A stretch of DNA of 62,333 bases from a bacterium (GCA_013202285.1 JABMRV010000161.1:1-62333), one strand, 5' to 3'. Counted from the first letter of the stretch, positions 71 through 62,333 are shown. Program-made: numbers and translations. Notes: generated from the sequence alone by a model not told the origin.

Positions 71-1939
71 TCAGCCTAACTTCCATCTGTTTAACTTTTC
101 AACTCTGTCAGTTTCATCTCGTCTCAGATGGAACGGTCTGCCTCTGGTATCGATCACTAACCCGACAACGCCTCCGTGGAGAACCCGTTCGACAGCTTTT
201 CCCGGTCCCTCACCCATGTCGAATCCCCTGCTCGGTTTGATATGTGCACGTATAGATTTACCGAGTTCAAAAGGAATCAGCTTGAGTTCACCGGCTTTGA
301 CAGAGATGTCGATTTCCTCACCATCTTCACTCTTGCCTGAGATATGGATAGAGTCTTTTCCAATCTTGGGTTTGCCAACGGGTGCAACACAACTACCGAG
401 GTGGATCAGGCAGTCCTTCTCAAACACATCGGTAGCTGCCTTTTCATTGACCGTAGCCAGCACACCCAACTGTGGCATCATGAAGATCGAGTCGACTGCC
501 AGCCGCGTGACTCCTTCCGGCTGGAAGGCATCGATTAACATCTGAGCAGCCTGGGAGCGCAGCGGTGCATGGGACAGAACGCCGCCGGAACCGACGAGCA
601 GATTGAGTGACATCATGTCCACCAGTGTTTCTCCGGATATTGTCTGCTCGAAGGCATCCGATATTGAGCGTTCCTGTTGGACGCCCTTCAAGCCGACAGC
701 GAACGATTTGTGCTGGATGAATGCCAGTCTTAACGCTTCTCTGGCGATAGCCTGCTCGATCTGTAGGTCTTCAAGCGTCTGGGGTATCGTTGTCGGGCGG
801 ATCATCTTGTTGCCGATCCGATCCCTCAGCACCTCTGAGCTGATGTCGAACGGTACCCAGCGCATGATGTTGTCGAATCCGGCTTCCGCGAGTACGTTGG
901 AGACCGAGTAGCTCATGCCGAGATTAGCGGAAACTGTGCGGTTGAAGACTCCGCCGAAAACGGAGAATATATCTGTTGTAGCACCCCCGATATCCACGCC
1001 GACCAGTTCGATATTGTGATTCCTGGCGATGGTTTCCATAATCGCGCCGACTGCGCCGGGAGTGGGCATGATGGGAGCATCCGTCCATGACATCAGCTTG
1101 CTGTAACCTGGAGCCTGAGCCATGACATGTTCCATGAACAGGTCGTGGATCTTGTCACGAGCCGGTCCGAGGTTTTCGGTTTCCAGTACCGGTCGGATGT
1201 TCTCGGTCAGTTGCAGATCGACCATTTCTTCGAGTACTTTTGCGACATCCTCGCGTGCCATTTCATTGCCGGCAAAGATGACCGGCAGTTTGTAACTACT
1301 GCCGAGGCGCGGTCTCGGTTTGGCTGCTGCTATCAGTTCGGCGAGTTCGACGACGTGCTTGGTCGTTCCACCGTCGATGCCTCCTGACAGCAGAATCATA
1401 TCGGGACGCAGGCGGCGGATGCGTTCTATCTTTTCATGCGCCAGCCGCCCGTCGTTTGAAGCTAATACGTCCATGACGATAGAACCGGCGCCGAGCGCGG
1501 CTCGTTCGGCTGACTCGGCGGTCATGGACATCACCACTCCGGAGACCATCATCTGCAAACCGCCTCCGGCGGAGGAAGTTGAGATATATATGTCGGTGCC
1601 TTTGCCGTTATTTTCCGGACGAATGATGGTCTCATCATCAGACACGAAGGACTTTCCGGACAGTTCTTCGACTTCATGCACGGCGTTCAGCACGCCTTTG
1701 GTAACGTCCTCGAACGGTGCTTCAACGGTCGTAGGCGCTTCGCCCCTGACAACCAGTCTATATTCTCCCGCCTCCTGCTGTTCGATGAGGATCGCCTTGG
1801 TCGTCGTCGAACCGCAGTCGGTGGCGAGGATGGTTTTGGGGTTGTTACCTGTATCCAAGCTGGATCGTGTTTGCAAGTTTGTCAATATCCTCTTATAAAT
1901 GGAATCACTTGAAATCCTCCCGTTCCGGATGAAAGACAT
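71..1939 (-). CDS. GlmL/MutL-like (glutamate-mutase accessory protein family) ASKHA-fold ATPase
   Basis: 622-aa ORF with two actin/Hsp70-like phosphate-binding motifs (ATDCGSTTTKA, VGVDIGGATTD). Overall resemblance to the GlmL/MutL family. Its start lies 17 nt downstream of the DprA-like gene stop. Confidence 0.7.
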   Translation of the reverse strand: MSFIRNGRISSDSIYKRILTNLQTRSSLDTGNNPKTILATDCGSTTTKAILIEQQEAGEYRLVVRGEAPTTVEAPFEDVTKGVLNAVHEVEELSGKSFVSDDETIIRPENNGKGTDIYISTSSAGGGLQMMVSGVVMSMTAESAERAALGAGSIVMDVLASNDGRLAHEKIERIRRLRPDMILLSGGIDGGTTKHVVELAELIAAAKPRPRLGSSYKLPVIFAGNEMAREDVAKVLEEMVDLQLTENIRPVLETENLGPARDKIHDLFMEHVMAQAPGYSKLMSWTDAPIMPTPGAVGAIMETIARNHNIELVGVDIGGATTDIFSVFGGVFNRTVSANLGMSYSVSNVLAEAGFDNIMRWVPFDISSEVLRDRIGNKMIRPTTIPQTLEDLQIEQAIAREALRLAFIQHKSFAVGLKGVQQERSISDAFEQTISGETLVDMMSLNLLVGSGGVLSHAPLRSQAAQMLIDAFQPEGVTRLAVDSIFMMPQLGVLATVNEKAATDVFEKDCLIHLGSCVAPVGKPKIGKDSIHISGKSEDGEEIDISVKAGELKLIPFELGKSIRAHIKPSRGFDMGEGPGKAVERVLHGGVVGLVIDTRGRPFHLRRDETDRVEKLNRWKLG

Positions 1940-1956
1940 CGATTATCCTGCAGTAG

Positions 1957-2919
1957 TTAATCAAAGATGCTTTCCTGTTGACCATAATCTATTTGTTCTG
2001 CTGTCTTTTCCAATAAAATGGTCGGATTCTCCAATGCCGCATTCGGAAATTCACTTCCCCATCCCATCCTTATCATGCTACGATTGCCTGGAATGTCGGC
2101 ATCGCGGACGAACAACGGCACGCGCCAGTGACGGTGGTTTTCATCTGCGCCCGCCCAAGTTCCGCCTTTGTTCTCCTCAGAACTCACGATAACCGCCGCT
2201 TGCGCCAGTCCGTATATCATCTTGTTGCGTTCCATCGCGCCACCCACGCTGAAAGGAGTATCCGGTTTACGCAGCGTAATCATCGTCAATCGTCCCGTTT
2301 CGAGCATATCGCGGAGTTCAGGTACAGCCGAGTTCCGCGCCAGATCACCGGCAAGCACGCCGATGACCTCGCCCCCGTTTTCCAGCGCCCCTCTCATAGT
2401 CCAACTGTCCGAGCCGCGAGCTCCGCCGGAGATTATCGTCAATTCGTTGCGCGCACATGATTCGCCGAACTGAAAAGCGAATTCTTCGCCATCCTGGTCG
2501 ATGTTTCGAGAACCCACCACTGCGATGCCGGGTGTATTTAATAGGTTTTGATCGCCCGCGCCGAACAGCAGCAGGGGAGCTTTACGTTCCAGCGTTTCTA
2601 TTGCCCTGTCGGGGTATGCGTCGTCCTCGCGACTGATTATCCAAAATCCGCTGCTGAGCCATGATTCTACACTCAGCGCCAGCTCGCCGCCACGGTTCAG
2701 TAGGTCTTGCAACCTGTCCGGTGTAATGCCTGAAACCGGCAGTTCTGCGTACTTTCCAATGGTAGATATTTCAAGCAGTTCCGATGGTTTCATATCCCGT
2801 TCGTTCAACCAGCCCGACAGTGCGTTGTATTCCGATAAGGACAACGGTTGGTTGTGATTGTCGTCGCCTAACCTGCCGCATAATAATAGAACGGTCTGTG
2901 TTTCCAATGTCAGGTTCAA
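1957..2919 (-). CDS. DprA/Smf-like Rossmann-fold protein (PsyrA/ShosA-like putative antitoxin)
   Basis: 320-aa ORF with the DprA core GIAVVGSRN...TIISGGARGSDS...VIGVLAGDL. A 4-nt ATGA-type overlap (2916-2919) links it to the upstream helicase-PRTase gene. Confidence 0.8.
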   Translation of the reverse strand: MNLTLETQTVLLLCGRLGDDNHNQPLSLSEYNALSGWLNERDMKPSELLEISTIGKYAELPVSGITPDRLQDLLNRGGELALSVESWLSSGFWIISREDDAYPDRAIETLERKAPLLLFGAGDQNLLNTPGIAVVGSRNIDQDGEEFAFQFGESCARNELTIISGGARGSDSWTMRGALENGGEVIGVLAGDLARNSAVPELRDMLETGRLTMITLRKPDTPFSVGGAMERNKMIYGLAQAAVIVSSEENKGGTWAGADENHRHWRVPLFVRDADIPGNRSMIRMGWGSEFPNAALENPTILLEKTAEQIDYGQQESIFD

Positions 2920-4241
2920 TTGCGAATCCCCTTCGAGGTTCGCGCCAGGGCGAATGGAAACACCGCTCCGGATCCAGCGCGTCGTAGTTCCAATCCGGCG
3001 ATGGCGAGCGTCCAGCCGGAATCGACCATGTCATCGATAAGTAATACAGCTCTGCCGGTTGCCCCCTTCAATTCCTTAATCTCAAGCGATCCAACTAAGT
3101 TGTTCGCCTGATAATATGAGTTCTCCATCTCTTTTTGTGGTAAGGTGTCTTTTACTTTCCTGATATAGTTTTTCCCGTAAGGTATTCCCAATTTGGCACA
3201 TAGCCTCCTCGCCAGGTCTGTAACCAGGTGGGGATGTCGTGTTGACGGTATCGACGTACCCCATTCAGGAAACGGTTTGGGACGCCATCGCTCTCGGATC
3301 ATCTGGGCTGCGTCGTCGATAAGCTGTCCGTCGAATCTACCGAGTATGTACTTGCCTTGTTTTACCAGTTCGCCCAGACCCGGATCACCCCAGCGGCATA
3401 GGATGCGACCGGTTTCATTGCGCCACTCTTCTGGAATTTTGGATCCGGATATACCGTATATTTCCAAAACTCCCGCTGGAGCCATCTTACGAGCCTTGAG
3501 CGGCATTTCGAGGCGACTTAGAAAAACCTGCGCTCGTTTTAAGGTTTCCTCATGATATTCGGTAGGGACAATATCCTCACCACGGCAGTTTGCGCAGACA
3601 CCACAGGGTTCCGGTTCAGGGTCGTTAAGTTCCCGAATTAAAAAAACCATCAAACATTCGTGGCAGTTCATATACTGGAGCATTCGCTCCCGCTCCATAT
3701 CGCGCTGCCGCTTCAGGCGTTCGATGCGGTCAGTGTCCGGCTGGTATGACACCGGTGTCCGGAACCATTTACGCCCCATTAGATTGACAGGTTGTGGTGT
3801 TTCCACGCTTAACACCTTTAGAACGTGCTCCATCTCCCCTGCCGATATGTTGACCTTGCCATGCAATTCATGTTGTGTAAGCCCATCCCGGGTGTCTTCA
3901 AGCGCTTTTATAACCTCCTGAATGGCAGACAAGGGAGGCATGGCGGTACCCTGGAAATAATCGAGGATATCCTGGTCCTCCGCACCCTGGAAGAGGATAC
4001 CGTAAGCATTATCCACAGCCCGCCCGGCGCGTCCAACTTGCTGGTAATAGTGCACCACCGATCCGGGCGTCTGGTAGTGAATTACGAATCCCAAGTCTGG
4101 TTTGTCAAATCCCATTCCCAGCGCTGTCGTCGCCACCATTGCCTTTATTTCATTGCGGAGCAACCGTTGCTCCAGAGACGCTCGCAAACCGGTACCCCTC
4201 CGTGTCCACCTCGCTGTGATATGATACGGCTTCGATGCCAT
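2916..4241 (-). CDS. RecQ-family helicase::phosphoribosyltransferase fusion, C-terminal fragment (helicase C-domain, Cys-rich region, PRTase domain)
   Basis: 441-aa ORF. Real homology begins at LEQRLLRNEIKAMVATTALGMGFDKPD, followed by motif VI QQVGRAGR and the Cys cluster CHEC...CGVCANC. The C-terminal PRPP-binding signature is VLLIDDMVDSGWT. The N-terminal ~20 residues are an out-of-frame artefact of the frameshift. Confidence 0.85.
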   Translation of the reverse strand: MASKPYHITARWTRRGTGLRASLEQRLLRNEIKAMVATTALGMGFDKPDLGFVIHYQTPGSVVHYYQQVGRAGRAVDNAYGILFQGAEDQDILDYFQGTAMPPLSAIQEVIKALEDTRDGLTQHELHGKVNISAGEMEHVLKVLSVETPQPVNLMGRKWFRTPVSYQPDTDRIERLKRQRDMERERMLQYMNCHECLMVFLIRELNDPEPEPCGVCANCRGEDIVPTEYHEETLKRAQVFLSRLEMPLKARKMAPAGVLEIYGISGSKIPEEWRNETGRILCRWGDPGLGELVKQGKYILGRFDGQLIDDAAQMIRERWRPKPFPEWGTSIPSTRHPHLVTDLARRLCAKLGIPYGKNYIRKVKDTLPQKEMENSYYQANNLVGSLEIKELKGATGRAVLLIDDMVDSGWTLAIAGLELRRAGSGAVFPFALARTSKGIRN

Positions 4242-5028
4242 TCTGCTTCAGCCAATCCGCTGTTCGGTCGGCGTCGTGCTTGGTAAGTGTGTAGATTATA
4301 CCTGACCCCGGCAGTCCGGGTAGATTGTCCGCCAGCCATGCCAACCGCGCCGCCGGGTCGAGCAGGCAGATGTTCTGCAGCATCAGCGATTCGCGCTTTA
4401 AGGGACCCCTTCGTACGTCGATCCCACCGCCGAACTGTTCGACAATATCCGTGATGACCCGGTCATTGGCGGTAGCAGTTGTAGCGAGCAGCGGTACATT
4501 GGGGGGCAGAGCCTTGATTATTCTCCCGATGCGCCGGTAGTCAGGGCGGAAGTCGTGACCCCAATCTGATATGCAATGAGCTTCGTCCACCACGAACAGA
4601 CCTGTCTGCTGCGCCATAGGCAGTAGATACTCACGTCTAAACCTTTCATTCGCAAGCCGTTCCGGCGCTACCATGAGCAGGTCGATTTCGTTATTGTTTA
4701 TTTGTCCCTTAATGCCTTCCCAATCAGCACGGTTTTCCGAGTTGATAGTAGCAGCGGTAATAAGCAGCGAACCGGCGCTATCTATTTGATTGCGCATTAA
4801 TGAGAGCAGGGGTGAAATGAGCAGTGTCGGTCCTGAGCCTCTATCCCTCAGAAACCGTGTAGCGAGAAAATATACAATGCTCTTTCCCCACCCCGTCTGT
4901 TGTACCAGCAGCAGTTTCCCATGCCGGTTGACCAGATCGTCGACTGCCTCCCATTGCCCCGGGCGAAAATTGGCTTCGGGATTCCCAAGGGCTGATTTTA
5001 GGGCAGAAAGCGCTTCGTCTTGCTTCAA
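4150..5028 (-). CDS. RecQ-family helicase, N-terminal fragment (DEAH ATPase domain), separated from the rest by a frameshift
   Basis: 292-aa ORF with a TTG start. Walker A is QQTGWGKS and the RecQ-type DEAH box is VVDEAHCISDWGHDFRPDYRR. After AVSYHSEVDTEG the frame runs into a short nonsense tail, and the continuation is in the frame of 2916..4241. Confidence 0.85.
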   Translation of the reverse strand: MKQDEALSALKSALGNPEANFRPGQWEAVDDLVNRHGKLLLVQQTGWGKSIVYFLATRFLRDRGSGPTLLISPLLSLMRNQIDSAGSLLITAATINSENRADWEGIKGQINNNEIDLLMVAPERLANERFRREYLLPMAQQTGLFVVDEAHCISDWGHDFRPDYRRIGRIIKALPPNVPLLATTATANDRVITDIVEQFGGGIDVRRGPLKRESLMLQNICLLDPAARLAWLADNLPGLPGSGIIYTLTKHDADRTADWLKQNGIEAVSYHSEVDTEGYRFASVSGATVAPQ

Positions 5029-5185
5029 TTTGTCAATTAATTAATCTGTCTTCAATTATCTATTAAATCAGTCAGTGTGGCATACCATCGGAGAATTACA
5101 ATGTTATCTCTTTTCCCTCATCCTTCCCACACCACTAACAACCTCCTCAACGCTACGATCTGGGCGGAAAGGTAATACAAGCCGC

Positions 5186-5575
5186 CTATCTCTTCGCCAA
5201 CTCAGTAATTTCCAAAGCAGTATCGAATAACTGCATGATTTCATCAGGTTTGAAATGGGACTCCGGTAATGGTGGATACCGATGCTTGAAGTAAAACGCT
5301 GATATGGTTCGTCCAAAGCGATAATACTTCTCAAATGTCTTATCGTATCCGGCAGCTTTGTCCATCAAGTATTCATTATCGTGTGTTTTTATCAGTTCCC
5401 ATCCTCTGTGGATAAGATATCCTTTTAGATACTTTTCAACAGCCTGCTGAATATGCGTCGCCACCACATCCTCAAGACCCTTGCGAGTCAACAGAATACG
5501 TGCGCTTTCCAAGTCACGCTCAGCGTATTCAAACCACTCGTTGCGTTCTTTTTCTTTTTCGTCCATCTCGTTCAT
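5186..5575 (-). CDS. HEPN domain protein (toxin-type partner of MNT)
   Basis: 129-aa all-helical ORF with the conserved C-terminal KHRYPP segment of the MNT-associated HEPN family. It overlaps the upstream MNT gene. Confidence 0.75.
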   Translation of the reverse strand: MNEMDEKEKERNEWFEYAERDLESARILLTRKGLEDVVATHIQQAVEKYLKGYLIHRGWELIKTHDNEYLMDKAAGYDKTFEKYYRFGRTISAFYFKHRYPPLPESHFKPDEIMQLFDTALEITELAKR

Positions 5576-5912
5576 ACAACATCCTGCCCTTTGTAACTAT
5601 CTCATTCAAGAAGGCATCGCCTCTGCCCAACCTCTCTTTTATTTCTGAGGGTGTATAAACATTAGGCGATACCGGAATTCCCCGCTGTGGATCGAAGATT
5701 ATCTCCTTGACCTTTACGAATCGATCCACCCAGCGAAGTGCCGTCTCCTTCACAATAAACAGATCAATATCGCTGTGCCGCGTCGGATTACCCCATGCGT
5801 AGGAACCGTAGAGAATGATCCTCTCCGGATGGTAATCACGCTTGAGCTTTTCGACTATGTCGTCCAGGATTTTATCTATATCGTGATTCAAATATGTTTC
5901 CTCATCCTTCAT
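5529..5912 (-). CDS. Minimal nucleotidyltransferase (MNT) domain protein
   Basis: 127-aa ORF with the pol-beta-type NTase motif RIILYGSYAWGNPTRHSDIDLFIV. It sits directly upstream of the HEPN gene. Confidence 0.85.
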   Translation of the reverse strand: MKDEETYLNHDIDKILDDIVEKLKRDYHPERIILYGSYAWGNPTRHSDIDLFIVKETALRWVDRFVKVKEIIFDPQRGIPVSPNVYTPSEIKERLGRGDAFLNEIVTKGRMLYERDGRKRKRTQRVV

Positions 5913-5915
5913 CCT

Positions 5916-6332
5916 TCATATATCTCGTCCATCGCTCTTCTTCTCCTTTTCTGAAGCCCTGCGCTGTTTTTTCTCCTCACGACGCTGCCGACGCTGCGCC
6001 TTGTGTTCTTTCCGTAATTTTTCCTCCGCCGCCAGCACATCTCCCTCCCGTTTCTCGATCAGATCGAGGAAGTAGGCTATCGATTCGCGTCTCTCCAGTA
6101 CCAGCTGAAGTTCATCCCATTCGGGAAGCCCGAAGAAACCCCTTACAATCGGTGCAAAGAAGACCATCACCTGGCTGCCGATATAGTTCATCGGTCGTAC
6201 CGATTCGAGGAACAGGATTGCCGGTACGGTCATCCGCAGTTTAACGACTCTGTCAGCTAATTTATCGAGCAGCTCACGCTGGCTGTCGGTCAACTCATCG
6301 GCAAAGGAAGCCGGAATGTTCTCACCGGTCAT
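5916..6332 (-). CDS. Hypothetical small protein (hydrophobic core, highly basic/acidic Lys-Arg-Glu tail)
   Basis: 138-aa ORF. ATGA overlap with the upstream gene (6329-6332), and only 3 nt before the MNT start. No family recognised. Confidence 0.5.
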   Translation of the reverse strand: MTGENIPASFADELTDSQRELLDKLADRVVKLRMTVPAILFLESVRPMNYIGSQVMVFFAPIVRGFFGLPEWDELQLVLERRESIAYFLDLIEKREGDVLAAEEKLRKEHKAQRRQRREEKKQRRASEKEKKSDGRDI

Positions 6333-6811
6333 GACGAATCGCCCTCGTTTTCAACAAGTGAGGTTGGTTCAGTTTCAGGCAGCCCTTTGACTTCAGGTGA
6401 GTATTTCCTGATTATCTCGATAATCCTGTCCCGGTTGTCCCGGTACGGCAGATATAACCCGCGAAAGTTTTCCAATCGCGATTTGACCGGAAAGGGGGAG
6501 AGGAATATGCCATCTTTTTCATCATTGATCGATCTTATTCGATCCCATCCGATTTTACGATTGAACAGCCATCGGTTCATGCTGGCGCCGCTGTCGTTAA
6601 TAATATAGGTTGTCGGCAGAAAGAAAGAAGTCAGCGAAATGAGCAGTATCAAAGCCGCGCCTATCGTGAACAGGATACTGCCGATGTTCCAGTACACCGC
6701 CCATATAGTTATAATCACCACCGACCAGAAGAGTATTCCTTTCATCGGGCTTTCGCGCATGGGAAAGGCAGTGTATCTGTATTCAGCGGTGTTTTTATTG
6801 ACTTCTTCCAT
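6329..6811 (-). CDS. Hypothetical 2-TM membrane protein with a possible PH-like C-terminal domain
   Basis: 160-aa ORF. Two hydrophobic helices (GILFWSVVIITIWAVYW, ILFTIGAALILLISLTSFF) are followed by a soluble ~80-aa domain. Confidence 0.5.
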   Translation of the reverse strand: MEEVNKNTAEYRYTAFPMRESPMKGILFWSVVIITIWAVYWNIGSILFTIGAALILLISLTSFFLPTTYIINDSGASMNRWLFNRKIGWDRIRSINDEKDGIFLSPFPVKSRLENFRGLYLPYRDNRDRIIEIIRKYSPEVKGLPETEPTSLVENEGDSS

Positions 6812-6911
6812 CTGTCCTCAAGATGAGAATCCTCAAAACTGCTCAACTTATCTAATATATCTCTGCTCCCATATCAAGTCAAGCGATAAGTCCGGATATC
6901 AATCAACCTTC

Positions 6912-8609
6912 CTAATACCTGTCCTTCGCCAGCCTGAATCCGACATCGTAAAACCTCGCACTGGGACGTCCTCGATTGCGATATGCCGACCTGCTACGCC
7001 TCGCATTATCCTCCCACGTAGGCAGTACGGAACTGCCTCCACGAATCACACGATGCGAAACCACCGGAAATAGCCACGGATCACCGACGTCGGGAGCAGT
7101 CTCATACCAGTCGTGATACCAGTCCTCGCACCACTCGGCGACATTTCCGTGCATGTCGTACAATCCCCATGGGTTCGGCATCAACTGACCGACGGGAAAA
7201 CTGCTTCCTGAAAGTCCTTCCGCACTCCAGGAGAATATCCCCAATGCATGGTAATCCGGATCATCTCCCCAGGGAAACCTCGTATCGGTTTCGACCCGAC
7301 ACGCATATTCCCATTCGGCTTCCGAGGGCAGGCGGTAATTCTTCCCCGGATCAAGTAGGTTCAGCCTTCTGATAAACGCCTTGACTTCATTCCATGACAC
7401 CTGTTCGACGGGGAGATTGTCTTCCTTGTAGTAAGAGGGATTGTACCCCATGACCTGTTTCCATTGAGACTGCATGACTTCGGTTGTCTGGAGATGGAAT
7501 GCCTTGACGGTGACTTGATGCTGCGGTCCTTCATCGTCATCACGCCCCTGCTCAGATGGTGGGGAACCCATGACGAATGTCCCGCCGGGTATAAATGTAA
7601 AATTGATTTCAGGGATGAATGTATGAGGCTTTAGATTGACTGATTGAGAGAGCTGTTCAACCGATTCAGTTTCACCATTTGGCTCTGTGAAAGGAGGCTG
7701 AGGGAGAGCCGGACCGAATTGCTCGATGGGGAAGATGAAATCTCCATGATGGTTACCTGGGTCGGTGATCTGTCCATATTGAGGGTGCTGCCTGGCGAGC
7801 GAACGTTTTATCACATTGTCCCGCAGGTAAACGCTGATCTCAGATGCGGTCATGTAACCGTCGCTGTTGAGGTCGGCGTCGCCATCGAGCGCCTGCAGAA
7901 GACAGTAGTTGAAAATGCTCCGGTCGGGGACCTCTTCATCCTTCTTCCCCGCGGTGATGAACTGGCGCGCAGGATGCATCAGGTGTGCCTTATCAAGCCT
8001 CCTGTTGTTCCAGTCCGGTGGAATGACCGCTCCGGAAAAGCAGCAGTCGAATATGAACAGGGCATGTCTAACGGTCAGACTTTCCGCAATGGCAGCAATG
8101 TTCTTCATCGGAATGGCTACTTCGAGGAATCTATCTCTGTCCACCTCGACCTTTGGTGCCTCAACCGGAAGGATATAGCCCTGGTTATTTCCGTCCTCAT
8201 CGGTGACGGTTTCACCGTGTCCGCTGAAATAGAACAGGAACCGGTCATCTGATTCTCCAACTCCTCGGCTGATAGAGTCCAGAACCGCTTCCAGCGCTGA
8301 TTTGTCCGGATCGAACAGTGTTACAACTTCAAACCCTCGTTTCCTGAGCGCTTCCGCGATGGACCTGGCGTCCTTAACCGCATGGTGCAACTGGAGCCAG
8401 CCGTTTGTGTAGTTGCTTACGCCTATTACAAAGGCGTAGCTGTAGCGGTACAGAATCGTATCCGCACCGGAGGGGGTTCGACCTATTGTGGCATGTTCTT
8501 CATTGTCTCCGAGAGAGACTGCTGAGAGAGAGGATAAGAGGAATGTAATCAGTATGACGATCAAACGTTTCATTTGGAAGGTTGTATCCCGGAATAGTCT
8601 GTAATACAT
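6912..8609 (-). CDS. Secreted caspase-like (C14) peptidase fused to an FGE/SUMF1-type (formylglycine-generating-enzyme-like) domain
   Basis: 565-aa ORF; the likely true start is M13 at 8573, giving the signal peptide MKRLIVILITFLLSSLSAVS. Caspase His and Cys contexts are FYFSGHGE and IFDCCFSGA. An EF-hand/dockerin-like DGDADLNSDGYMTASE is present. C-terminal FGE-type motifs are YRLPSEAEWEYACR, GLYDMHGNVAEWCEDW and RVIRGGS. Confidence 0.85.
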   Translation of the reverse strand: MYYRLFRDTTFQMKRLIVILITFLLSSLSAVSLGDNEEHATIGRTPSGADTILYRYSYAFVIGVSNYTNGWLQLHHAVKDARSIAEALRKRGFEVVTLFDPDKSALEAVLDSISRGVGESDDRFLFYFSGHGETVTDEDGNNQGYILPVEAPKVEVDRDRFLEVAIPMKNIAAIAESLTVRHALFIFDCCFSGAVIPPDWNNRRLDKAHLMHPARQFITAGKKDEEVPDRSIFNYCLLQALDGDADLNSDGYMTASEISVYLRDNVIKRSLARQHPQYGQITDPGNHHGDFIFPIEQFGPALPQPPFTEPNGETESVEQLSQSVNLKPHTFIPEINFTFIPGGTFVMGSPPSEQGRDDDEGPQHQVTVKAFHLQTTEVMQSQWKQVMGYNPSYYKEDNLPVEQVSWNEVKAFIRRLNLLDPGKNYRLPSEAEWEYACRVETDTRFPWGDDPDYHALGIFSWSAEGLSGSSFPVGQLMPNPWGLYDMHGNVAEWCEDWYHDWYETAPDVGDPWLFPVVSHRVIRGGSSVLPTWEDNARRSRSAYRNRGRPSARFYDVGFRLAKDRY

Positions 8610-8744
8610 ACGGTTTCGAACGATAAAAGCTCAAGATAAACCATTATCGGAGATATGTCAACGAATCAAATCGCCGAGCGGGGATTAATTCCCACTCGGC
8701 GATTGTTTACTGTTAATCAGTCTGGATTATATTTCAGAGGAGTT

Positions 8745-9314
8745 TTACGTCACGAGCCCCAGTACCTTCCTGGAATACCTGGTGCTGGGTGGAATAAGAT
8801 TCAGATCGAATGTGCCTTTCCGTCCGCGGTTATAAGCAGTCAACGCCCAGTGTTCCGTATCGTGGAAATCGAGGAAGTAATCCATGTGTCGTTCGAATAT
8901 CTCAATGCCGATCCGCACATTAAGCACTGGATCGAAGAGGTCGTCCGGCGTCAATTCCGGTTCGATCTCCATTCCCGCCACCGGTCTGATCTGCATCAAA
9001 CCCCTGGCGTCACGGGGTGAAAGCGCATCGACCCGCCAGTTTGATTCAACCTCGATGATCGACTTAACGAGTTCGGGATGGCTGCTGTTTTCAATAAGTC
9101 CGATTATTTCAATTGCAATATCCGAACCGGTCTGTTGTAACAGATCCCTATAGCCTTCGTAACTGTTGAGTGCGACCAGCAAAGGCTCAACCTCAGCCAT
9201 CTGTGCCGCATACTCCGGTGAACGTTCAGGCGCATACCCATAACCGACGAACAGGATTACTGCCGCTGTTAGCAGGTATGCGTAGCGTTTGAGTGGTTCT
9301 AACTGTTCTCGCAT
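8745..9314 (-). CDS. Lytic transglycosylase (SLT domain), membrane anchored
   Basis: 189-aa ORF with an N-terminal TM helix. SLT catalytic region: IIEVESNWRVDALSPRDARGLMQI. Confidence 0.8.
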   Translation of the reverse strand: MREQLEPLKRYAYLLTAAVILFVGYGYAPERSPEYAAQMAEVEPLLVALNSYEGYRDLLQQTGSDIAIEIIGLIENSSHPELVKSIIEVESNWRVDALSPRDARGLMQIRPVAGMEIEPELTPDDLFDPVLNVRIGIEIFERHMDYFLDFHDTEHWALTAYNRGRKGTFDLNLIPPSTRYSRKVLGLVT

Positions 9315-11828: not shown

Positions 11829-14800
11829 TCAAAAAAGCTGCGCCCCTGACTTCTCATTCAATTCCTGCAGATTCAACGGCTTCAGTTTACGATCCTGGAT
11901 TGCCGCTCGGATTGCTTCAATGGCGGCTTCCGCCGCTGAAAGAGTGGTTATTAACGGAAGCCCCGTTCGGTAGGCGGTTTCGCCGACAATTCTCTCGTCG
12001 AAATAGGATTCTTTTCCAAGAGGCGTGTTGATAAGCAGTTGGATTTCACCGTTCTTTATGAGATCGACAATGTTGGGGCGTCCCTCGTTTACCTTGTAAA
12101 CAAATTCCGCCTCAATTCCGTGCTCTTCGAGTACCCCTTTAGTGCCCCGAGTAGCCACAAGCTTGAATCCCATCTCGGTTAGACTTCCGGCGATCTTGAC
12201 AATCCGCCCGCGGTCATGTTCGTTGACGGAAACGAAAACCGAGCCTTTCAGCGGAAGATAGGTTCCGGCGGCATAGAGAGCCTTGGAATACGCCTCACTG
12301 AAACTGTCGGCAATCCCCATAACCTCACCCGTTGAGCGCATCTCCGGACCGAGAAACGGATTGAAACCCTCAAAACGGCTGAAGGGAAAGACCACCTCTT
12401 TTACCGCATATCGACCCGGATTGAGGTTTTCACGCACACCCTGATCCTGAAGAGACTTCCCGATCATGCACAACGTTGCTACCCTGACCCAGTTGACGCC
12501 GGTCGCCTTGGAGACGAACGGTATGGTGCGGCTGGCGCGCGGGTTCACCTCGATGATGTACATCTCTCCGTCGCGAAAGGCGAACTGAACGTTCATCAAT
12601 CCCACGACCTGCAGCGCATCGGCGAGGGTACGGGTTATCCCGATCATCTGGTCTCGCTGCTCGTCCGTCAGGATGAACGGAGGAAGAACGCAGGCGCTGT
12701 CACCGCTGTGAATTCCGGCTTCTTCGATATGCTGCATGATGCCGCAGATTATCGCTTCTCTCCCGTCCGAAACAGCATCGACGTCGAACTCGTAGGCATT
12801 CTCAATGTAGCGGTCGATGAGAACCGGATGTTCAGGAGTCACTTCTCCAGCCGACTCACGGAGGTATTTCTTCAGGCGTTCGTTATCATAGACGATCTCC
12901 ATTGCCCGCCCGCCCAACACGAAACTCGGACGAACCAACAACGGATAGCCGATACTCTCGGCAATGTCCTCAGCCTCAGTGAAGTGTTGTGCAATGCCGT
13001 ACTGAGGGTGAGGTATGTCAAGCGAGCGCAGCAATGCTCCGAATTTCTCCCTGTCCTCGGCATCGGCGATATGGGATGGCGGCGTGCCGATGATGTTAAC
13101 ACCGTTCTCTTCGAGAGCGGCGGCGATTGTGAGAGGCGTCTGCCCGCCGAATTGAACGATTACGCCAGCCGGTTTTTCTATCCTGCAGATTTCAAGAACA
13201 TCCTCAAGCGTGATAGGCTCGAAATACAGCCGTCCTGAAACGTCGTAGTCGGTCGAGACGGTCTCCGGATTGCAGTTAATCATAATACTCGTGTATCCCT
13301 CGCTGGACAGTGTGAGAGAAGCATGAACACAACAATAGTCGAACTCAATACCCTGACCTATCCGGTTCGGTCCGCTGCCCAGGACGATGATCCTTGGTTT
13401 GTCACCCGTTTTTACTTCGCTCCTGCCCTGTTCATACGAGGAATAGTAGTACGGAGTATAAGCCTCAAACTCAGCCGCACAGGTATCGACCGATAAGAAC
13501 ACCGGACGGATGTCATGCACCTCACGCAGCCTTCGGATAGTGGTTTGGTTGGTCTGAAAGATGTGCGCGAGCTGTCTGTCGGAGAAGCCTGCCTGTTTTG
13601 CCTCGAAGAGTTGCTCGCGGGTTACGGCTCTCCGCAGGGTTGTTAAATCGTGCGAACCGTTTGGCACAAGTGTTCTGAGATGCTTCTCCTGTTCAACGAT
13701 AAGGGCGATCTGGTCTATGAACCAGGGATCGATTCCCGTGGTCTCGGCTATCTCTTCGACCGAGATTCCGAGTTTGAGGGCATGTCGGAGGTAGAAGATG
13801 TTCTCCTGTCGTGGAGTTGACAGCTTACGCCTGACCAATGCGCGCCATTCAGACAGCAGATGCGGTTCGACGTGATCTGAGAGCAGAACATCGCGTCCGT
13901 CAGCGCCCAGTCCCGCGCGGTTCTGTTCCAGGCTGCGCAATGCTTTCTGCAACGCTTCGGGGAAGGTTCTCCCGATAGCCATCACTTCGCCGACTGATTT
14001 CATCTGACTGCCGAGTGTCTGATCGACGGTGGGAAATTTCTCAAACGCCCACCTTGGTATCTTTACGACAATATAATCGAGAGCAGGTTCGAAGCTTGCG
14101 GGCGTCTTACGGGTGATGGCGTTCGTAATCTCATCGAGACGATAGCCCACTGCCAGTTTGGTCGCAATTCGGGCAATTGGGAAACCTGTGGCTTTCGACG
14201 CCAGGGCGGACGAGCGGCTGACGCGTGGGTTCATCTCGATTACCACCATGCGACCGTTTTCAGGATTGACGGCGAATTGTATGTTGCTGCCGCCGGTATC
14301 AACGCCGATTTTACGAATGACAGCGAATGCAGCGTCCCGCATCAGTTGATATTCCTTGTCGGTCAGTGTCATTGCCGGAGCGACGGTTATGCTGTCGCCT
14401 GTATGAATACCCAATGGATCGAAGTTTTCAATCGAGCACACAACCACGCATTGATCGGCGCAATCGCGCATGACCTCAAGCTCGAACTCCTTCCAGCCTG
14501 TCAACGCTTCCTCGATCAGAACCTCTCCAATAGGGCTGCGCTCCAGCCCCCACGTTGTGCGAGCCTCGAATTCCTCCTGGTTATATACAATAGAGCCGCC
14601 AACTCCTCCCAACGTGAATGAGGGACGAATAATAGCCGGTAGTCCTGTTTTTTCGAGGACGAACGATGCCTCGGTCATCGTCTTGGCAAAGCCGCCGTTC
14701 GGCATGTCAAGTCCAATGCTGCGCATGGCATGATGGAATTGCTCGCGATTCTCCGCCTGCCGGATGGCTCTGACCGAAGCGCCCAGTAACCTGATACCGT

Positions 14801-15131
14801 ATCGTTCGAGGATGCCGGCGTTGTCCAGTTCGATAGCAAGGTTGAGAGCCGTCTGTCCGCCCATTGTCGGCAACAGCGTATCTGGTTTTTCACGCTCGAT
14901 AATCCGCTCGATGATGTCCAGTTCGAGCGGTTCTACATAGGTGGCATCCGCGAGAGCCGGATCGGTCATGATCGTAGCAGGATTACTGTTGACCAGTATT
15001 ACTCGAAAGCCTTCTTCTTTAAGTGTGCGTATTGCCTGGGTGCCGGAATAGTCGAATTCACATGCCTGCCCGATGACGATGGGTCCACTGCCCAAAACCA
15101 GCACCGATTTGATGTCATCACGTCTTGGCAT
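11829..15131 (-). CDS. carB: Carbamoyl-phosphate synthase large subunit
   Basis: Unmistakable CarB sequence from [33 protein letters not shown], with two ATP-grasp halves and an MGS-like C-terminus. The ORF extends to 15260, but the conserved N-terminus starts at the ATG at 15131, which overlaps the carA stop by 14 nt. Confidence 0.97.
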
Positions 15132-16257
15132 GACGCATCTCCCTGATGAAGCGGTCGAAATATGTCCGTCCTTCATGCGGACCGGGGCTGGCTTCCGGGT
15201 GGTACTGGATGGAAAAGAAGGGCTTTTGTGAATGTTCGAGTCCTTCCACCGTGCCGTCATTCAGATTCAGATGGGTGATTTGCCACTCGTCTCTTAGACC
15301 GTCAGGATCGACGGCGAAGCCGTGGTTCTGGCTTGAGATTTCAATTATCCCGTCACCGAGCATCTTTACCGGATGATTAGCGCCGCGATGACCGAACCGC
15401 AGTTTGAATGTCTTGAGACCCGCTGCGAGTGCGAGTAACTGATGTCCGAGACAGATGCCGAACAAGGGGATATTTCCCCTCAACAGTTCTGAGATAGTCT
15501 CAATGCCTTTGAGAACTGCTGCCGGGTCGCCGGGTCCGTTCGAGATCAGCACACCGTCATAATCCGAGCCTTTTATCTCTTCAGCGGTTATTTCAGCCGG
15601 AAGGACGGTAACTTCACAGCCTCTGCAGGCGAGTTCTCGCAGGATATTGCGTTTTACACCGAAGTCGATCACCGCCGTCCGCAGTCCTTCACCGCTTTTC
15701 AGAACCGGATTCCATTTCGAGTTGACATCGGAAGCCGGGAAGCTATATGGTTTGTTACATGAGACCTCAGTTGCGAGATCTGAGCCTGTCATGGATGCGG
15801 ATGATTTGACTAACTCCATAGCATCGCTTACTGGCTTCTCGACGGGGAAAATACCGGCGCGCATTGCACCCCGTTCCCTCAGATGGAGTGTTATCGAGCG
15901 AGTATCTACACCTGATAAGAGCGGAACATTCGACTCAGCCAACCATGAAGGCAGGTCTCCTTCGGAACGCCAGCTCCGCGGAGCGGGAGCGATGCTGCGC
16001 ACCACAGCTCCGGTTGCGTGTATCCGGTCGGATTCATTGTCCTCGCTGTTCACACCGACATTTCCGATATGAGGCGCGGTGAAGACTATAATCTGGCGGG
16101 AATAGGAGGGATCTGTAAGGATCTCCTGGTAGCCGGTGTGAGATGTATTGAAGACGGCTTCTCCGAGGCATGGCTGACTGCCGAGAAAGGAGTATCCCCT
16201 GAACTTCTTCCCATCCTCAAGTAATAAATATCCTTCGCGAGAGTTTTTTAATTGCAA
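15118..16257 (-). CDS. carA: Carbamoyl-phosphate synthase small (glutamine amidotransferase) subunit
   Basis: 379-aa ORF with a TTG start. N-terminal [16 protein letters not shown] and GATase triad context [12 protein letters not shown] ... [13 protein letters not shown]. Confidence 0.97.
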
Positions 16258-51477: not shown

Positions 51478-51630
51478 GCGGTCATCTGCAGGCTGGAGTT
51501 CATTCACAATTATTCGACGGAACTGAAATGCCGACGGGTACTTATCTTGTGGAGATGAGATCGGGGGGGAACAGGTCGGTGGATAAGGTGGTGTTGATTA
51601 AGTAGTACCTGTTGAAAAACTCTCTGCTGT

Positions 51631-51700
51631 GTCATTCCCGCGCAGGCGGGAATCCAGACAAGTTATTTATTTCATAGATTCCTGCCTTTGTAGGAATGAC
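51631..51700 (+). repeat. Family-1 REP-like repeat, full bipartite copy
   Basis: GTCATTCCCGCGCAGGCGGGAATCCAGACAAGTT plus a second hairpin ATTCCT-GCCTTTGT-AGGAAT. Confidence 0.85.
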
Positions 51701-57390: not shown

Positions 57391-57451
57391 TTAATCATGT
57401 CGATTTATACTTGTATAGACAATAGACAAATCGTCATTCCCGTGTATCTTT

Positions 57452-57522
57452 GTCATTCCCGCGCAGGCGGGAATCCAGACAAGTTATTGTAATTTTATGG
57501 ATTCCGGCTTTCGCCGGAACGA
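57452..57522 (+). repeat. Family-1 REP-like repeat, full bipartite copy (plus partial duplication at 57433-57444)
   Basis: GTCATTCCCGCGCAGGCGGGAATCCAGACAAGTT plus a second hairpin TTCCGGC-TTTC-GCCGGAA. GTCATTCCCGTG lies 19 nt upstream. Confidence 0.85.
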
Positions 57523-61894: not shown

Positions 61895-61983
61895 TATGCC
61901 TCCTTTGCGATCGAGAAGTGTTGAATTCCGAAGAGATTTCTTGTTAAGTATTTATTCAGTTCCTGTCGATAAAGTGTTATTTT

Positions 61984-62017
61984 GTCATTCCCGCGCAGGC
62001 GGGAATCCAGACAAGTT
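61984..62017 (+). repeat. Family-1 REP-like repeat (first hairpin intact, second degenerate)
   Basis: GTCATTCCCGCGCAGGCGGGAATCCAGACAAGTT is an exact copy. The downstream GGTTTCCTATTTCGTTAGAA is a decayed second hairpin. Confidence 0.85.

Positions 62018-62288: not shown

Positions 62289-62333
<45 letters not shown>

Follow-up and report, generated by a model that had tools for sequence, protein, structure and literature searches.

PsyrTA, also known as RqlHI, has been described both as a toxin-antitoxin system and as an anti-phage system (Sberro 2013; Russell & Mulvey 2015, PMC4670107; Millman 2022, 10.1101/2022.05.11.491447). In RqlHI of E. coli, SOS induction and filamentation depend on the phosphoribosyltransferase (PRTase) domain at the C-terminus of a RecQ-like helicase, and a DprA-like partner binds this domain and neutralises the toxin; the helix-turn-helix (HTH) tail of the partner is dispensable, and an RqlI truncation comprising residues 1-320 still blocked RqlH toxicity. 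Phage protection has been published for a PsyrTA from Bacillus, and knowledge of toxicity, neutralisation and phage protection is confined to these two examples. The joining of a caspase to an FGE-sulfatase domain is also already known, from orthocaspases (PMC5756287). Here we analyse a 62,333-nucleotide (nt) stretch of bacterial DNA that is a whole NCBI contig (GCA_013202285.1 JABMRV010000161.1; hereafter the window), and within it a region on the minus strand, positions 71-8609, whose eight genes an earlier note had put forward as a candidate defence locus of composite or new kind. In all likelihood the region holds three unrelated things: a stand-alone caspase-FGE gene; a conserved set of genes for a two-transmembrane (2TM) protein, a small protein and a GlmL-like protein; and, in a recurrent slot between the small and GlmL-like genes, a cargo of two known two-gene modules, MNT-HEPN and PsyrTA. 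The region would then be a small defence and toxin-antitoxin hotspot with core-gene flanks in an uncultured phylum, and the systems that it carries are already known.

Genes were called from an open reading frame (ORF) listing together with three profile libraries (Pfam, PADLOC and NCBIfam), and the minus strand carries every long ORF from 8609 down to 71. The gene order, strand and domain calls of the earlier note agree with these searches. The features of the region are as follows.

6912-8609, minus strand: caspase (Peptidase_C14) and FGE-sulfatase protein of 565 amino acids (aa); Pfam PF00656 at 5.5e-19 and PF03781 at 1.4e-47.
6329-6811, minus strand: 2TM membrane protein, first gene of the left flank; 160 aa, two predicted transmembrane helices, no family match.
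5916-6332, minus strand: small protein, second gene of the left flank; 138 aa, no family match.
5529-5912, minus strand: MNT, presumed antitoxin of the first cargo module (1a); Pfam Polbeta at 4.4e-10 and NTP_transf_2 at 1.1e-9.
5186-5575, minus strand: HEPN protein, presumed toxin of the first cargo module (1b); Pfam HEPN (PF05168) at 2.6e-20.
5070-5899, strand not assigned: segment of 830 base pairs (bp) missing from a related strain (locus L025), comprising MNT from about codon 6, HEPN and 116 bp downstream; from pairwise alignment with L025.
2916-5028, minus strand: psyrT/rqlH of the second cargo module (2a), a disrupted gene for a RecQ-like helicase with zinc/winged-helix and PRTase toxin domains; two ORFs matching PADLOC PsyrT.
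4195-4198, minus strand: GGGG run with an extra nucleotide that frameshifts psyrT; from ORF repair and comparison with L025.
1957-2919, minus strand: psyrA/rqlI of the second cargo module (2b), a DprA/SLOG-like antitoxin of 320 aa; PADLOC PsyrA at 9.2e-96.
71-1939, minus strand: GlmL-like ASKHA-type protein ('MutL', PF13941), the right flank; 622 aa; Pfam MutL at 3.8e-128.

To gather relatives, we took homologues of the 2TM protein and their contigs, scanned GTDB genomes, and searched metagenomes with the small protein. The nearest named relatives, Ca. Hatepunaea meridiana and 'Calditrichaeota AABM5.125.24', belong to Ca. Electryoneota of the Fibrobacteres-Chlorobi-Bacteroidetes (FCB) group. 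Of the fetched loci, 35 (some of them duplicates, with about two dozen distinct) have the 2TM and small genes upstream and the GlmL-like gene downstream, and synteny between the 2TM and small genes holds in almost every locus. Both flanks are spanned by ten distinct close-relative loci, the window included, in which the order is always 2TM, small, cargo, GlmL, with the following cargo.

Window: MNT-HEPN and PsyrTA with psyrT frameshifted; 3.98 kilobases (kb) of cargo.
L026: two DinB genes and an intact PsyrTA (PsyrT 62-70% identical).
L016 and L009: DinB and an MmeI-type IIG restriction-modification system.
L019: DinB and SoFic (3.5e-114).
L007: a 376-aa protein, DinB, a cupin, SoFic, MNT and a frameshifted HEPN.
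L003, L014 and L021: an NsnB/AriA-like ABC ATPase (about 1e-59) and small partners.
L008: MNT and a 331-aa protein without a family match.

Across loci the gap between the small and GlmL genes ranges from -30 bp to 4.76 kb; among more distant loci it is empty (-30 to about 390 bp) in L056, L061, L071, L085, L087, L090, L093, L109 and L110, and holds only DinB in L051 and L052. Every cargo gene called with confidence has the orientation of the flanks, and at least one gene matches a PADLOC model in each of the 10 close-clade loci, L008 being counted only through tblastn similarity of its MNT. As in a hotspot, the same flank genes recur in relatives around a content that varies and includes empty sites, and we read the gap as a probable recurrent landing site where varied defence or toxin-antitoxin genes would stand co-oriented with the flanks, or be lacking altogether. 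The earlier note had rightly placed conflict-type genes here, in that MNT/HEPN and RecQ-PRTase/DprA occupy a slot of variable content among relatives. Core-like synteny, which it had named as a sign against its own reading, is found in the flanks but not in the cargo. Some slot cargo lacks any Pfam or PADLOC match, namely proteins of 329 and 331 aa after MNT (L014 13589-14578; L008 4637-5632) and of 109 and 180 aa after the NsnB-like ABC ATPase (L014 12880-13209; L021 6239-6568; L003 14173-14715). In the distant relative L053 (9372-11926) the gap contains genes for an amidohydrolase and for a protein of 391 aa that weakly matches a TIR effector (PADLOC 7.5e-9).

The flank genes themselves are conserved to different degrees (identity across loci of 66-86% for GlmL, 41-82% for the small protein and 27-65% for the 2TM protein), and on the synteny evidence the three are a conserved neighbourhood of Ca. 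Electryoneota and other FCB-group metagenome bacteria and not defence genes. The 'uncharacterised proteins wedged between modules' of the earlier note are in relatives conserved flank genes and not members of a cassette, and its inclusion of the 2TM, small and GlmL-like genes in a defence locus is at odds with the direct abutment of the small gene on GlmL in several metagenome loci. The 2TM protein has 39 homologues, of which the distant ones are found after a HIT-family gene in housekeeping contexts, and a Pfam search up to E 10 returned only the sub-threshold bPH_4 and DUF986. Its AlphaFold2 model (predicted local distance difference test, pLDDT, of 80) consists of N-terminal strands, two long helices, a β-sandwich and a C-terminal helix, and is suggestive of a transmembrane hairpin inserted in a PH-like domain or sandwich. 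Foldseek matches to the model were weak: the best was EROS (8kei_D; E 7.5e-3, TM-score 0.40), an NADPH-oxidase chaperone regarded as a relative of Ycf4, and FERM-F3/PH domains came next. The start of the small gene overlaps the 2TM stop by 4 nt, and its product has at least 523 metagenome relatives, an invariant hydrophobic core in the alignment ('PAILFLESVRPMNYxGSQVMVFF') and a K/R/E-rich tail; it matched no family in the profile libraries or in Pfam up to E 10, and a single-sequence structure model (pLDDT 62) was too poor for use.

The GlmL-like protein does not qualify as a glutamate mutase accessory protein (GlmL) by score or by neighbourhood: it scores 230.6 against NF040745 of NCBIfam, whose cut-off is 475, and 157 against TIGR01319, whose cut-off is 204, and the genes that follow it in relatives are Cupin_2, Aconitase_C, NIF3 and ECH, with no mutase subunits. 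Its N-terminus is about 28 residues longer than that of most orthologues (622 versus 593-598 aa), and the Pfam match starts at residue 37. The GlmL-like protein of L026, which bears PsyrTA, is also long (635 aa), so that the psyrA-GlmL junction of the window and L026 may be shared by descent.

A single defence locus of eight genes, composite or new, whose caspase-FGE, 2TM, small and GlmL-like ATPase proteins would work together with the toxin-antitoxin modules, is extremely unlikely. The genes are indeed co-directional and some overlap, and L025 keeps their order over its contig, the loss of MNT-HEPN apart; but the combination is found in no other relative, the 2TM, small and GlmL genes occur together without any defence cargo in some loci, and GlmL is far more conserved than expected of a defence gene. 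The other modules are also found on their own, caspase-FGE orthologues (with an export-signal-like N-terminus) in housekeeping contexts and PsyrTA on plasmids, and a promoter-like match lies in each of the two long spacers of the region. On these comparisons the composite reading appears already largely refuted by synteny.

Two other proposals concern the trio of flank genes. It is distinctly improbable, in our estimate, that the genes for the 2TM-PH, small and GlmL-like proteins are a widely conserved membrane-associated module of the FCB group whose gap is a dedicated 'plug-in' site, where operon-oriented cassettes would be co-transcribed and swapped via the flanks, the trio itself being perhaps tied to defence. 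Very unlikely, too, is the proposal that the trio is a conflict-related platform that recruits or regulates the inserted cassette. The close-clade cargo is always co-oriented and inside an apparent operon, and the presence of a PADLOC-model gene in 10/10 fully spanned close-clade loci would be in keeping with such a platform, but the trio is highly conserved, is also found with an empty gap or with ordinary metabolic genes there, and gave no PADLOC or PHROG-type signal for any of its three proteins.

The larger cargo module is PsyrTA. A profile search of the block proteins, as the earlier note had proposed, recognised the RecQ-PRTase/DprA pair as this already described system (PsyrA 9.2e-96; repaired PsyrT 6.1e-271), and the identification as PsyrTA (RqlHI) is firm at the level of sequence. 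The RecQ-PRTase is not the single gene of the earlier note, nor a single intact polypeptide: a +1-nt frameshift divides it into overlapping ORFs at 4150-5028 (292 aa) and 2916-4241 (441 aa), which match PADLOC PsyrT at 5e-126 over profile positions 5-278 and at 1.8e-140 over positions 279-686, respectively. Motif I (GWGKS) and DEAH are encoded in the first of these, and the Helicase_C domain, Cys cluster and PRPP loop VLLIDDMVDSGWT in the second; the frameshift lies between the two helicase lobes. When the GGGG run at 4195-4198 is shortened by one G, an ORF of 703 aa is recovered, with a single PADLOC match (6.1e-271, 898.6 bits, profile positions 5-686 of 689), and the intact homologue P0040 scores 916 bits against the same profile. 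The closest intact homologue of PsyrT is just 65% identical. The TTG start of psyrA overlaps the psyrT stop by 4 nt, placing the antitoxin gene directly downstream, and PsyrA matches profile positions 1-300 of 398 in PADLOC, Pfam DNA_processg_A (2.6e-34) and, in the PDB, DprA 3uqz (2.2e-13). It has no C-terminal HTH domain, and PsyrA of L026 (323 aa) has equal profile coverage; the dispensable HTH tail of the E. coli partner fits with this 320-aa, HTH-less form.

PsyrTA was found without the other genes of the block beside ParAB on a Nostoc plasmid and within a BREX-1 operon on an Acinetobacter plasmid, which argues for a self-contained pair. On the latter (L114; NZ_CP090068.1, 107631-120476), PsyrTA and a DUF262 gene lie between pglX and pglZ.

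The frameshift in psyrT is probably real and not an assembly error, since the extra G is also present in a second assembly (L001), which aligns to the window without gaps and with a single mismatch in 9,706 bp, no other long ORF of the 62-kb contig is visibly split, and the accession numbers of GlmL (NQT34901.1) and HEPN (NQT34903.1) leave only one number between them although two genes intervene, from which we infer that the helicase is annotated as a pseudogene at NCBI. An assembly or sequencing error, with a fully functional PsyrTA, seems unlikely to us. It would be in keeping with the position of the extra base, which lies in a homopolymer of four Gs and could still be an error, with a ratio of nonsynonymous to synonymous divergence (dN/dS) of 0.18, indicative of purifying selection until recently, and with the intact state of all psyrT catalytic motifs; L001, moreover, may stem from related samples and is then not a fully independent confirmation. 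Yet its sequence is identical at the site, with its one mismatch elsewhere, and, besides the accession numbers and the lack of other split ORFs, the sister strain L025 has independently broken psyrT. Programmed frameshifting or transcriptional slippage at the GGGG run was rejected, as a +1 shift would be needed, the run has only four bases, and L025 reads through the site with one base fewer.

Highly improbable, too, is a split psyrT that functions in a new form, either as a two-subunit helicase or as a toxic RecA2-PRTase fragment made from the ATG at 4241 that keeps psyrA under selection. The downstream ORF does begin with ATG and keep the PRPP loop of the PRTase, psyrA is intact, and published helicase-dead RqlH variants of E. 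coli are still harmful through the PRTase domain; against this, residues 1-18 of the downstream ORF are out-of-frame sequence, and L025, intact at the GGGG site but broken elsewhere, points to decay and not to a selected split. With a +1 frameshift between the helicase lobes, PsyrTA of the window is most likely inactive or decaying, psyrA being still intact, and the locus is a probable pseudogene that is a member of PsyrTA by descent.

L025, a contig of 3.7 kb, represents the closest strain and is 90-96% identical to the window in nucleotide sequence. At the GGGG site it has one base fewer, and its product P0045 reads through as ...AYHSEVDTARTGLRASLEQRLL; its psyrT carries lesions of its own, a 59-bp deletion and a 1-nt insertion. 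Between the window and L025, psyrT has a dN/dS of 0.18 and a synonymous divergence (dS) of 0.087; the dN/dS suggests that the gene was under selection until recently and that the lesions are recent and independent in each strain. The dS of the 2TM and small genes taken jointly is 0.303, from which the cargo appears younger than the flanks. L025 is without the 830-bp MNT-HEPN segment yet still has ~20 nt from the start of the MNT ORF, which indicates that the segment was lost by deletion in L025. In L036 the identity is 89% for MNT but only 64-72% for the flanks. Neither an integrase nor a transposase was found in the cargo of the close clade, and when the surroundings of the cargo were searched for att-like repeats, direct or inverted, only short matches at chance level came up. 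Together with the lower dS of psyrT and the MNT of L036, these results make recombination via the conserved flanks the probable route of cargo exchange.

The other cargo module appears, from its sequence, to be an ordinary small nucleotidyltransferase/HEPN pair: MNT and HEPN are adjacent and co-directional with a 47-nt overlap, MNT has a GSx10DxD motif at residue 36 and weakly matches the solved MntA 5yep in sequence, and the HEPN ORF is intact, covering positions 3-115 of 117 of the Pfam profile. The candidate families for MNT in PADLOC are PDC-S09 and PDC-M05A, and the closest solved sequence to HEPN is 1wol (E 0.006). The Pfam search returned no match of HEPN to the HepT family, which we take to be DUF86. 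In another species, the HEPN gene in the slot is split into ORFs of 60 and 73 aa in different frames (L007 5043-5443, and also L006 and L018, three assemblies), a second decaying toxin gene at the slot.

The caspase-FGE gene adjoins the hotspot and is not part of it. The motifs SGHG (H131) and FDCC (C189) stand at the expected catalytic dyad and are conserved in orthologues, and a hydrophobic segment lies at the N-terminus in 9/9 of the orthologues whose sequence reaches that end; the signal-peptide-like N-terminus suggests that the product is probably exported. Orthologues (50-54% identity) are single genes beside aspS, ExbBD, lipA and similar genes, with no conserved partner genes next to them, and the earlier note's inclusion of caspase-FGE in the block is contradicted by these stand-alone positions and by the export-signal-like N-terminus. 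Among relatives, only L025 has caspase-FGE next to the 2TM gene. The protein scores 64.5 against 'caspase, EACC1-associated' (NF047832), below the cut-off of 140.

On the other side of the block lie an SLT gene (8745-9314), a gene for a protein with a type IX secretion system tail, and carB (11829-15260); the earlier note had SLT and carB there as well. Its very short or negative spacers hold for gaps of -47, -4, -4, +3 and +17 nt and not for those of 100 nt (caspase-2TM) and 157 nt (HEPN-psyrT). Each of the two long spacers contains a promoter-like match. A promoter and terminator scan of the region gave match counts not above shuffled expectation; the three promoter-like matches are suggestive by position only, and promoters of the FCB group may differ from sigma-70. 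Rfam found no RNA genes in the region, and no tRNA adjoins the slot. GC content does not mark the cargo, as MNT-HEPN has a value of 0.446, yet 15% of contig windows are lower. Between the SLT and caspase-FGE genes is a near-perfect 18+18-nt palindrome (8669-8704; AATCGCCGAGCGGGGATT/AATTCCCACTCGGCGATT), just upstream of a promoter-like match, which could be an operator or a terminator. A 35-39-nt repeat with an internal GC-rich hairpin, TTGTCATTCCCGCGCAGGCGGGAATCCAGACAAGTT, is present in four intergenic copies (1-39, 51630-51664, 57449-57485 and 61979-62017) and looks like a repetitive extragenic palindromic or terminator element; its copy at position 1 is the exact end of both the window contig and the L001 contig. 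At 62289-62333 a tRNA gene is truncated by the contig end (Rfam RF00005, 34.9 bits), and ARAGORN found no complete tRNA in the contig.

Several points weigh against our interpretation. GlmL was not found in 8 loci whose sequence runs on for 6 kb or more downstream of the small gene; in L045, the one of these inspected, housekeeping genes lie there. In distant clades the gap holds mostly non-defence genes (DJ-1/PfpI, M15 peptidase, IS200-like transposase, amidohydrolase, outer membrane protein, PEMT), so that the site appears insertion-permissive and not strictly devoted to defence, and defence genes would predominate only in the close clade. MNT scores 31.7 bits against MntA of NCBIfam (NF047752), with a cut-off of 60, and the expression R.{4,6}H found no match in HEPN, the nearest being R57-x7-H65 and R99-x7-H107; the lack of a strict Rx4-6H motif and the sub-cut-off MntA score make RNase toxicity of HEPN uncertain. 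Flank recombination is a putative mechanism of exchange, suggested by sequence comparison, and we infer all toxin, antitoxin and defence functions from the families. By family knowledge, HEPN would be a growth-arresting toxin that MNT restrains by binding or nucleotidylation, and PsyrT would be a PRTase-dependent genotoxin that is restrained by PsyrA and freed on infection.

On this interpretation, core-gene-flanked defence hotspots, which until now have been mapped chiefly in well-sampled species (among them E. coli, P. aeruginosa and Acinetobacter), would also be present in the uncultured Ca. Electryoneota, where two easily searched anchor genes could serve for mining new cargo. The unmatched cargo (the 329/331-aa, 109-aa and 180-aa proteins) provides candidate new partners of known defence genes or components, the window and L025 would be a natural example of independent loss of the PsyrTA toxin in two sister strains, and the caspase, the membrane pair and the GlmL-like gene may be guarded against a wrong annotation as defence genes.

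Compared with known systems, the second module resembles PsyrTA/RqlHI in its gene order, where a DprA-like gene comes after, and overlaps, that of a RecQ-like helicase ending in a PRTase domain, in matching the PADLOC PsyrT and PsyrA profiles along their length, and in keeping the helicase motifs, the Cys cluster and the PRPP loop; it differs in that its toxin gene is frameshifted, PsyrA is without the C-terminal ~100 profile residues (HTH), and the host is an uncultured FCB-group bacterium. With ShosTA (PMC11961720, PMC12961424) it has in common the antitoxin fold and the principle of a PRTase toxin, and weaker PADLOC matches were found (ShosA 1.5e-21, ShosT 1.6e-4), but ShosT has no helicase domain and the PsyrT and PsyrA profiles fit far better. 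The first module is like type VII HepT-MntA in that a small nucleotidyltransferase with GSx10DxD stands directly before, and overlaps, a HEPN gene of ~130 aa, and is unlike it in that its HEPN is of PF05168, without a strict Rx4-6H, and its MNT is under the MntA cut-off. The caspase-FGE protein shares with the orthocaspases that carry an FGE-sulfatase (Microcystis MaOC4; PMC5756287) a p20 caspase with His-Cys motifs followed by a C-terminal FGE-sulfatase, and differs in its signal-peptide-like N-terminus, which is conserved in orthologues. As in the core defence hotspots of P. aeruginosa (cDHS; PMC10250203) and of E. coli (PMC10121019), constant core flanks enclose a variable defence content, empty sites occur, and no single type of mobile element is involved; in contrast, the slot described here is 0-4.8 kb long with one or two systems (versus a median of 26 kb), is defined across the species to phylum level and not within a species, has no tRNA or tmRNA at its border, and carries its cargo inside an apparent operon, always co-oriented.

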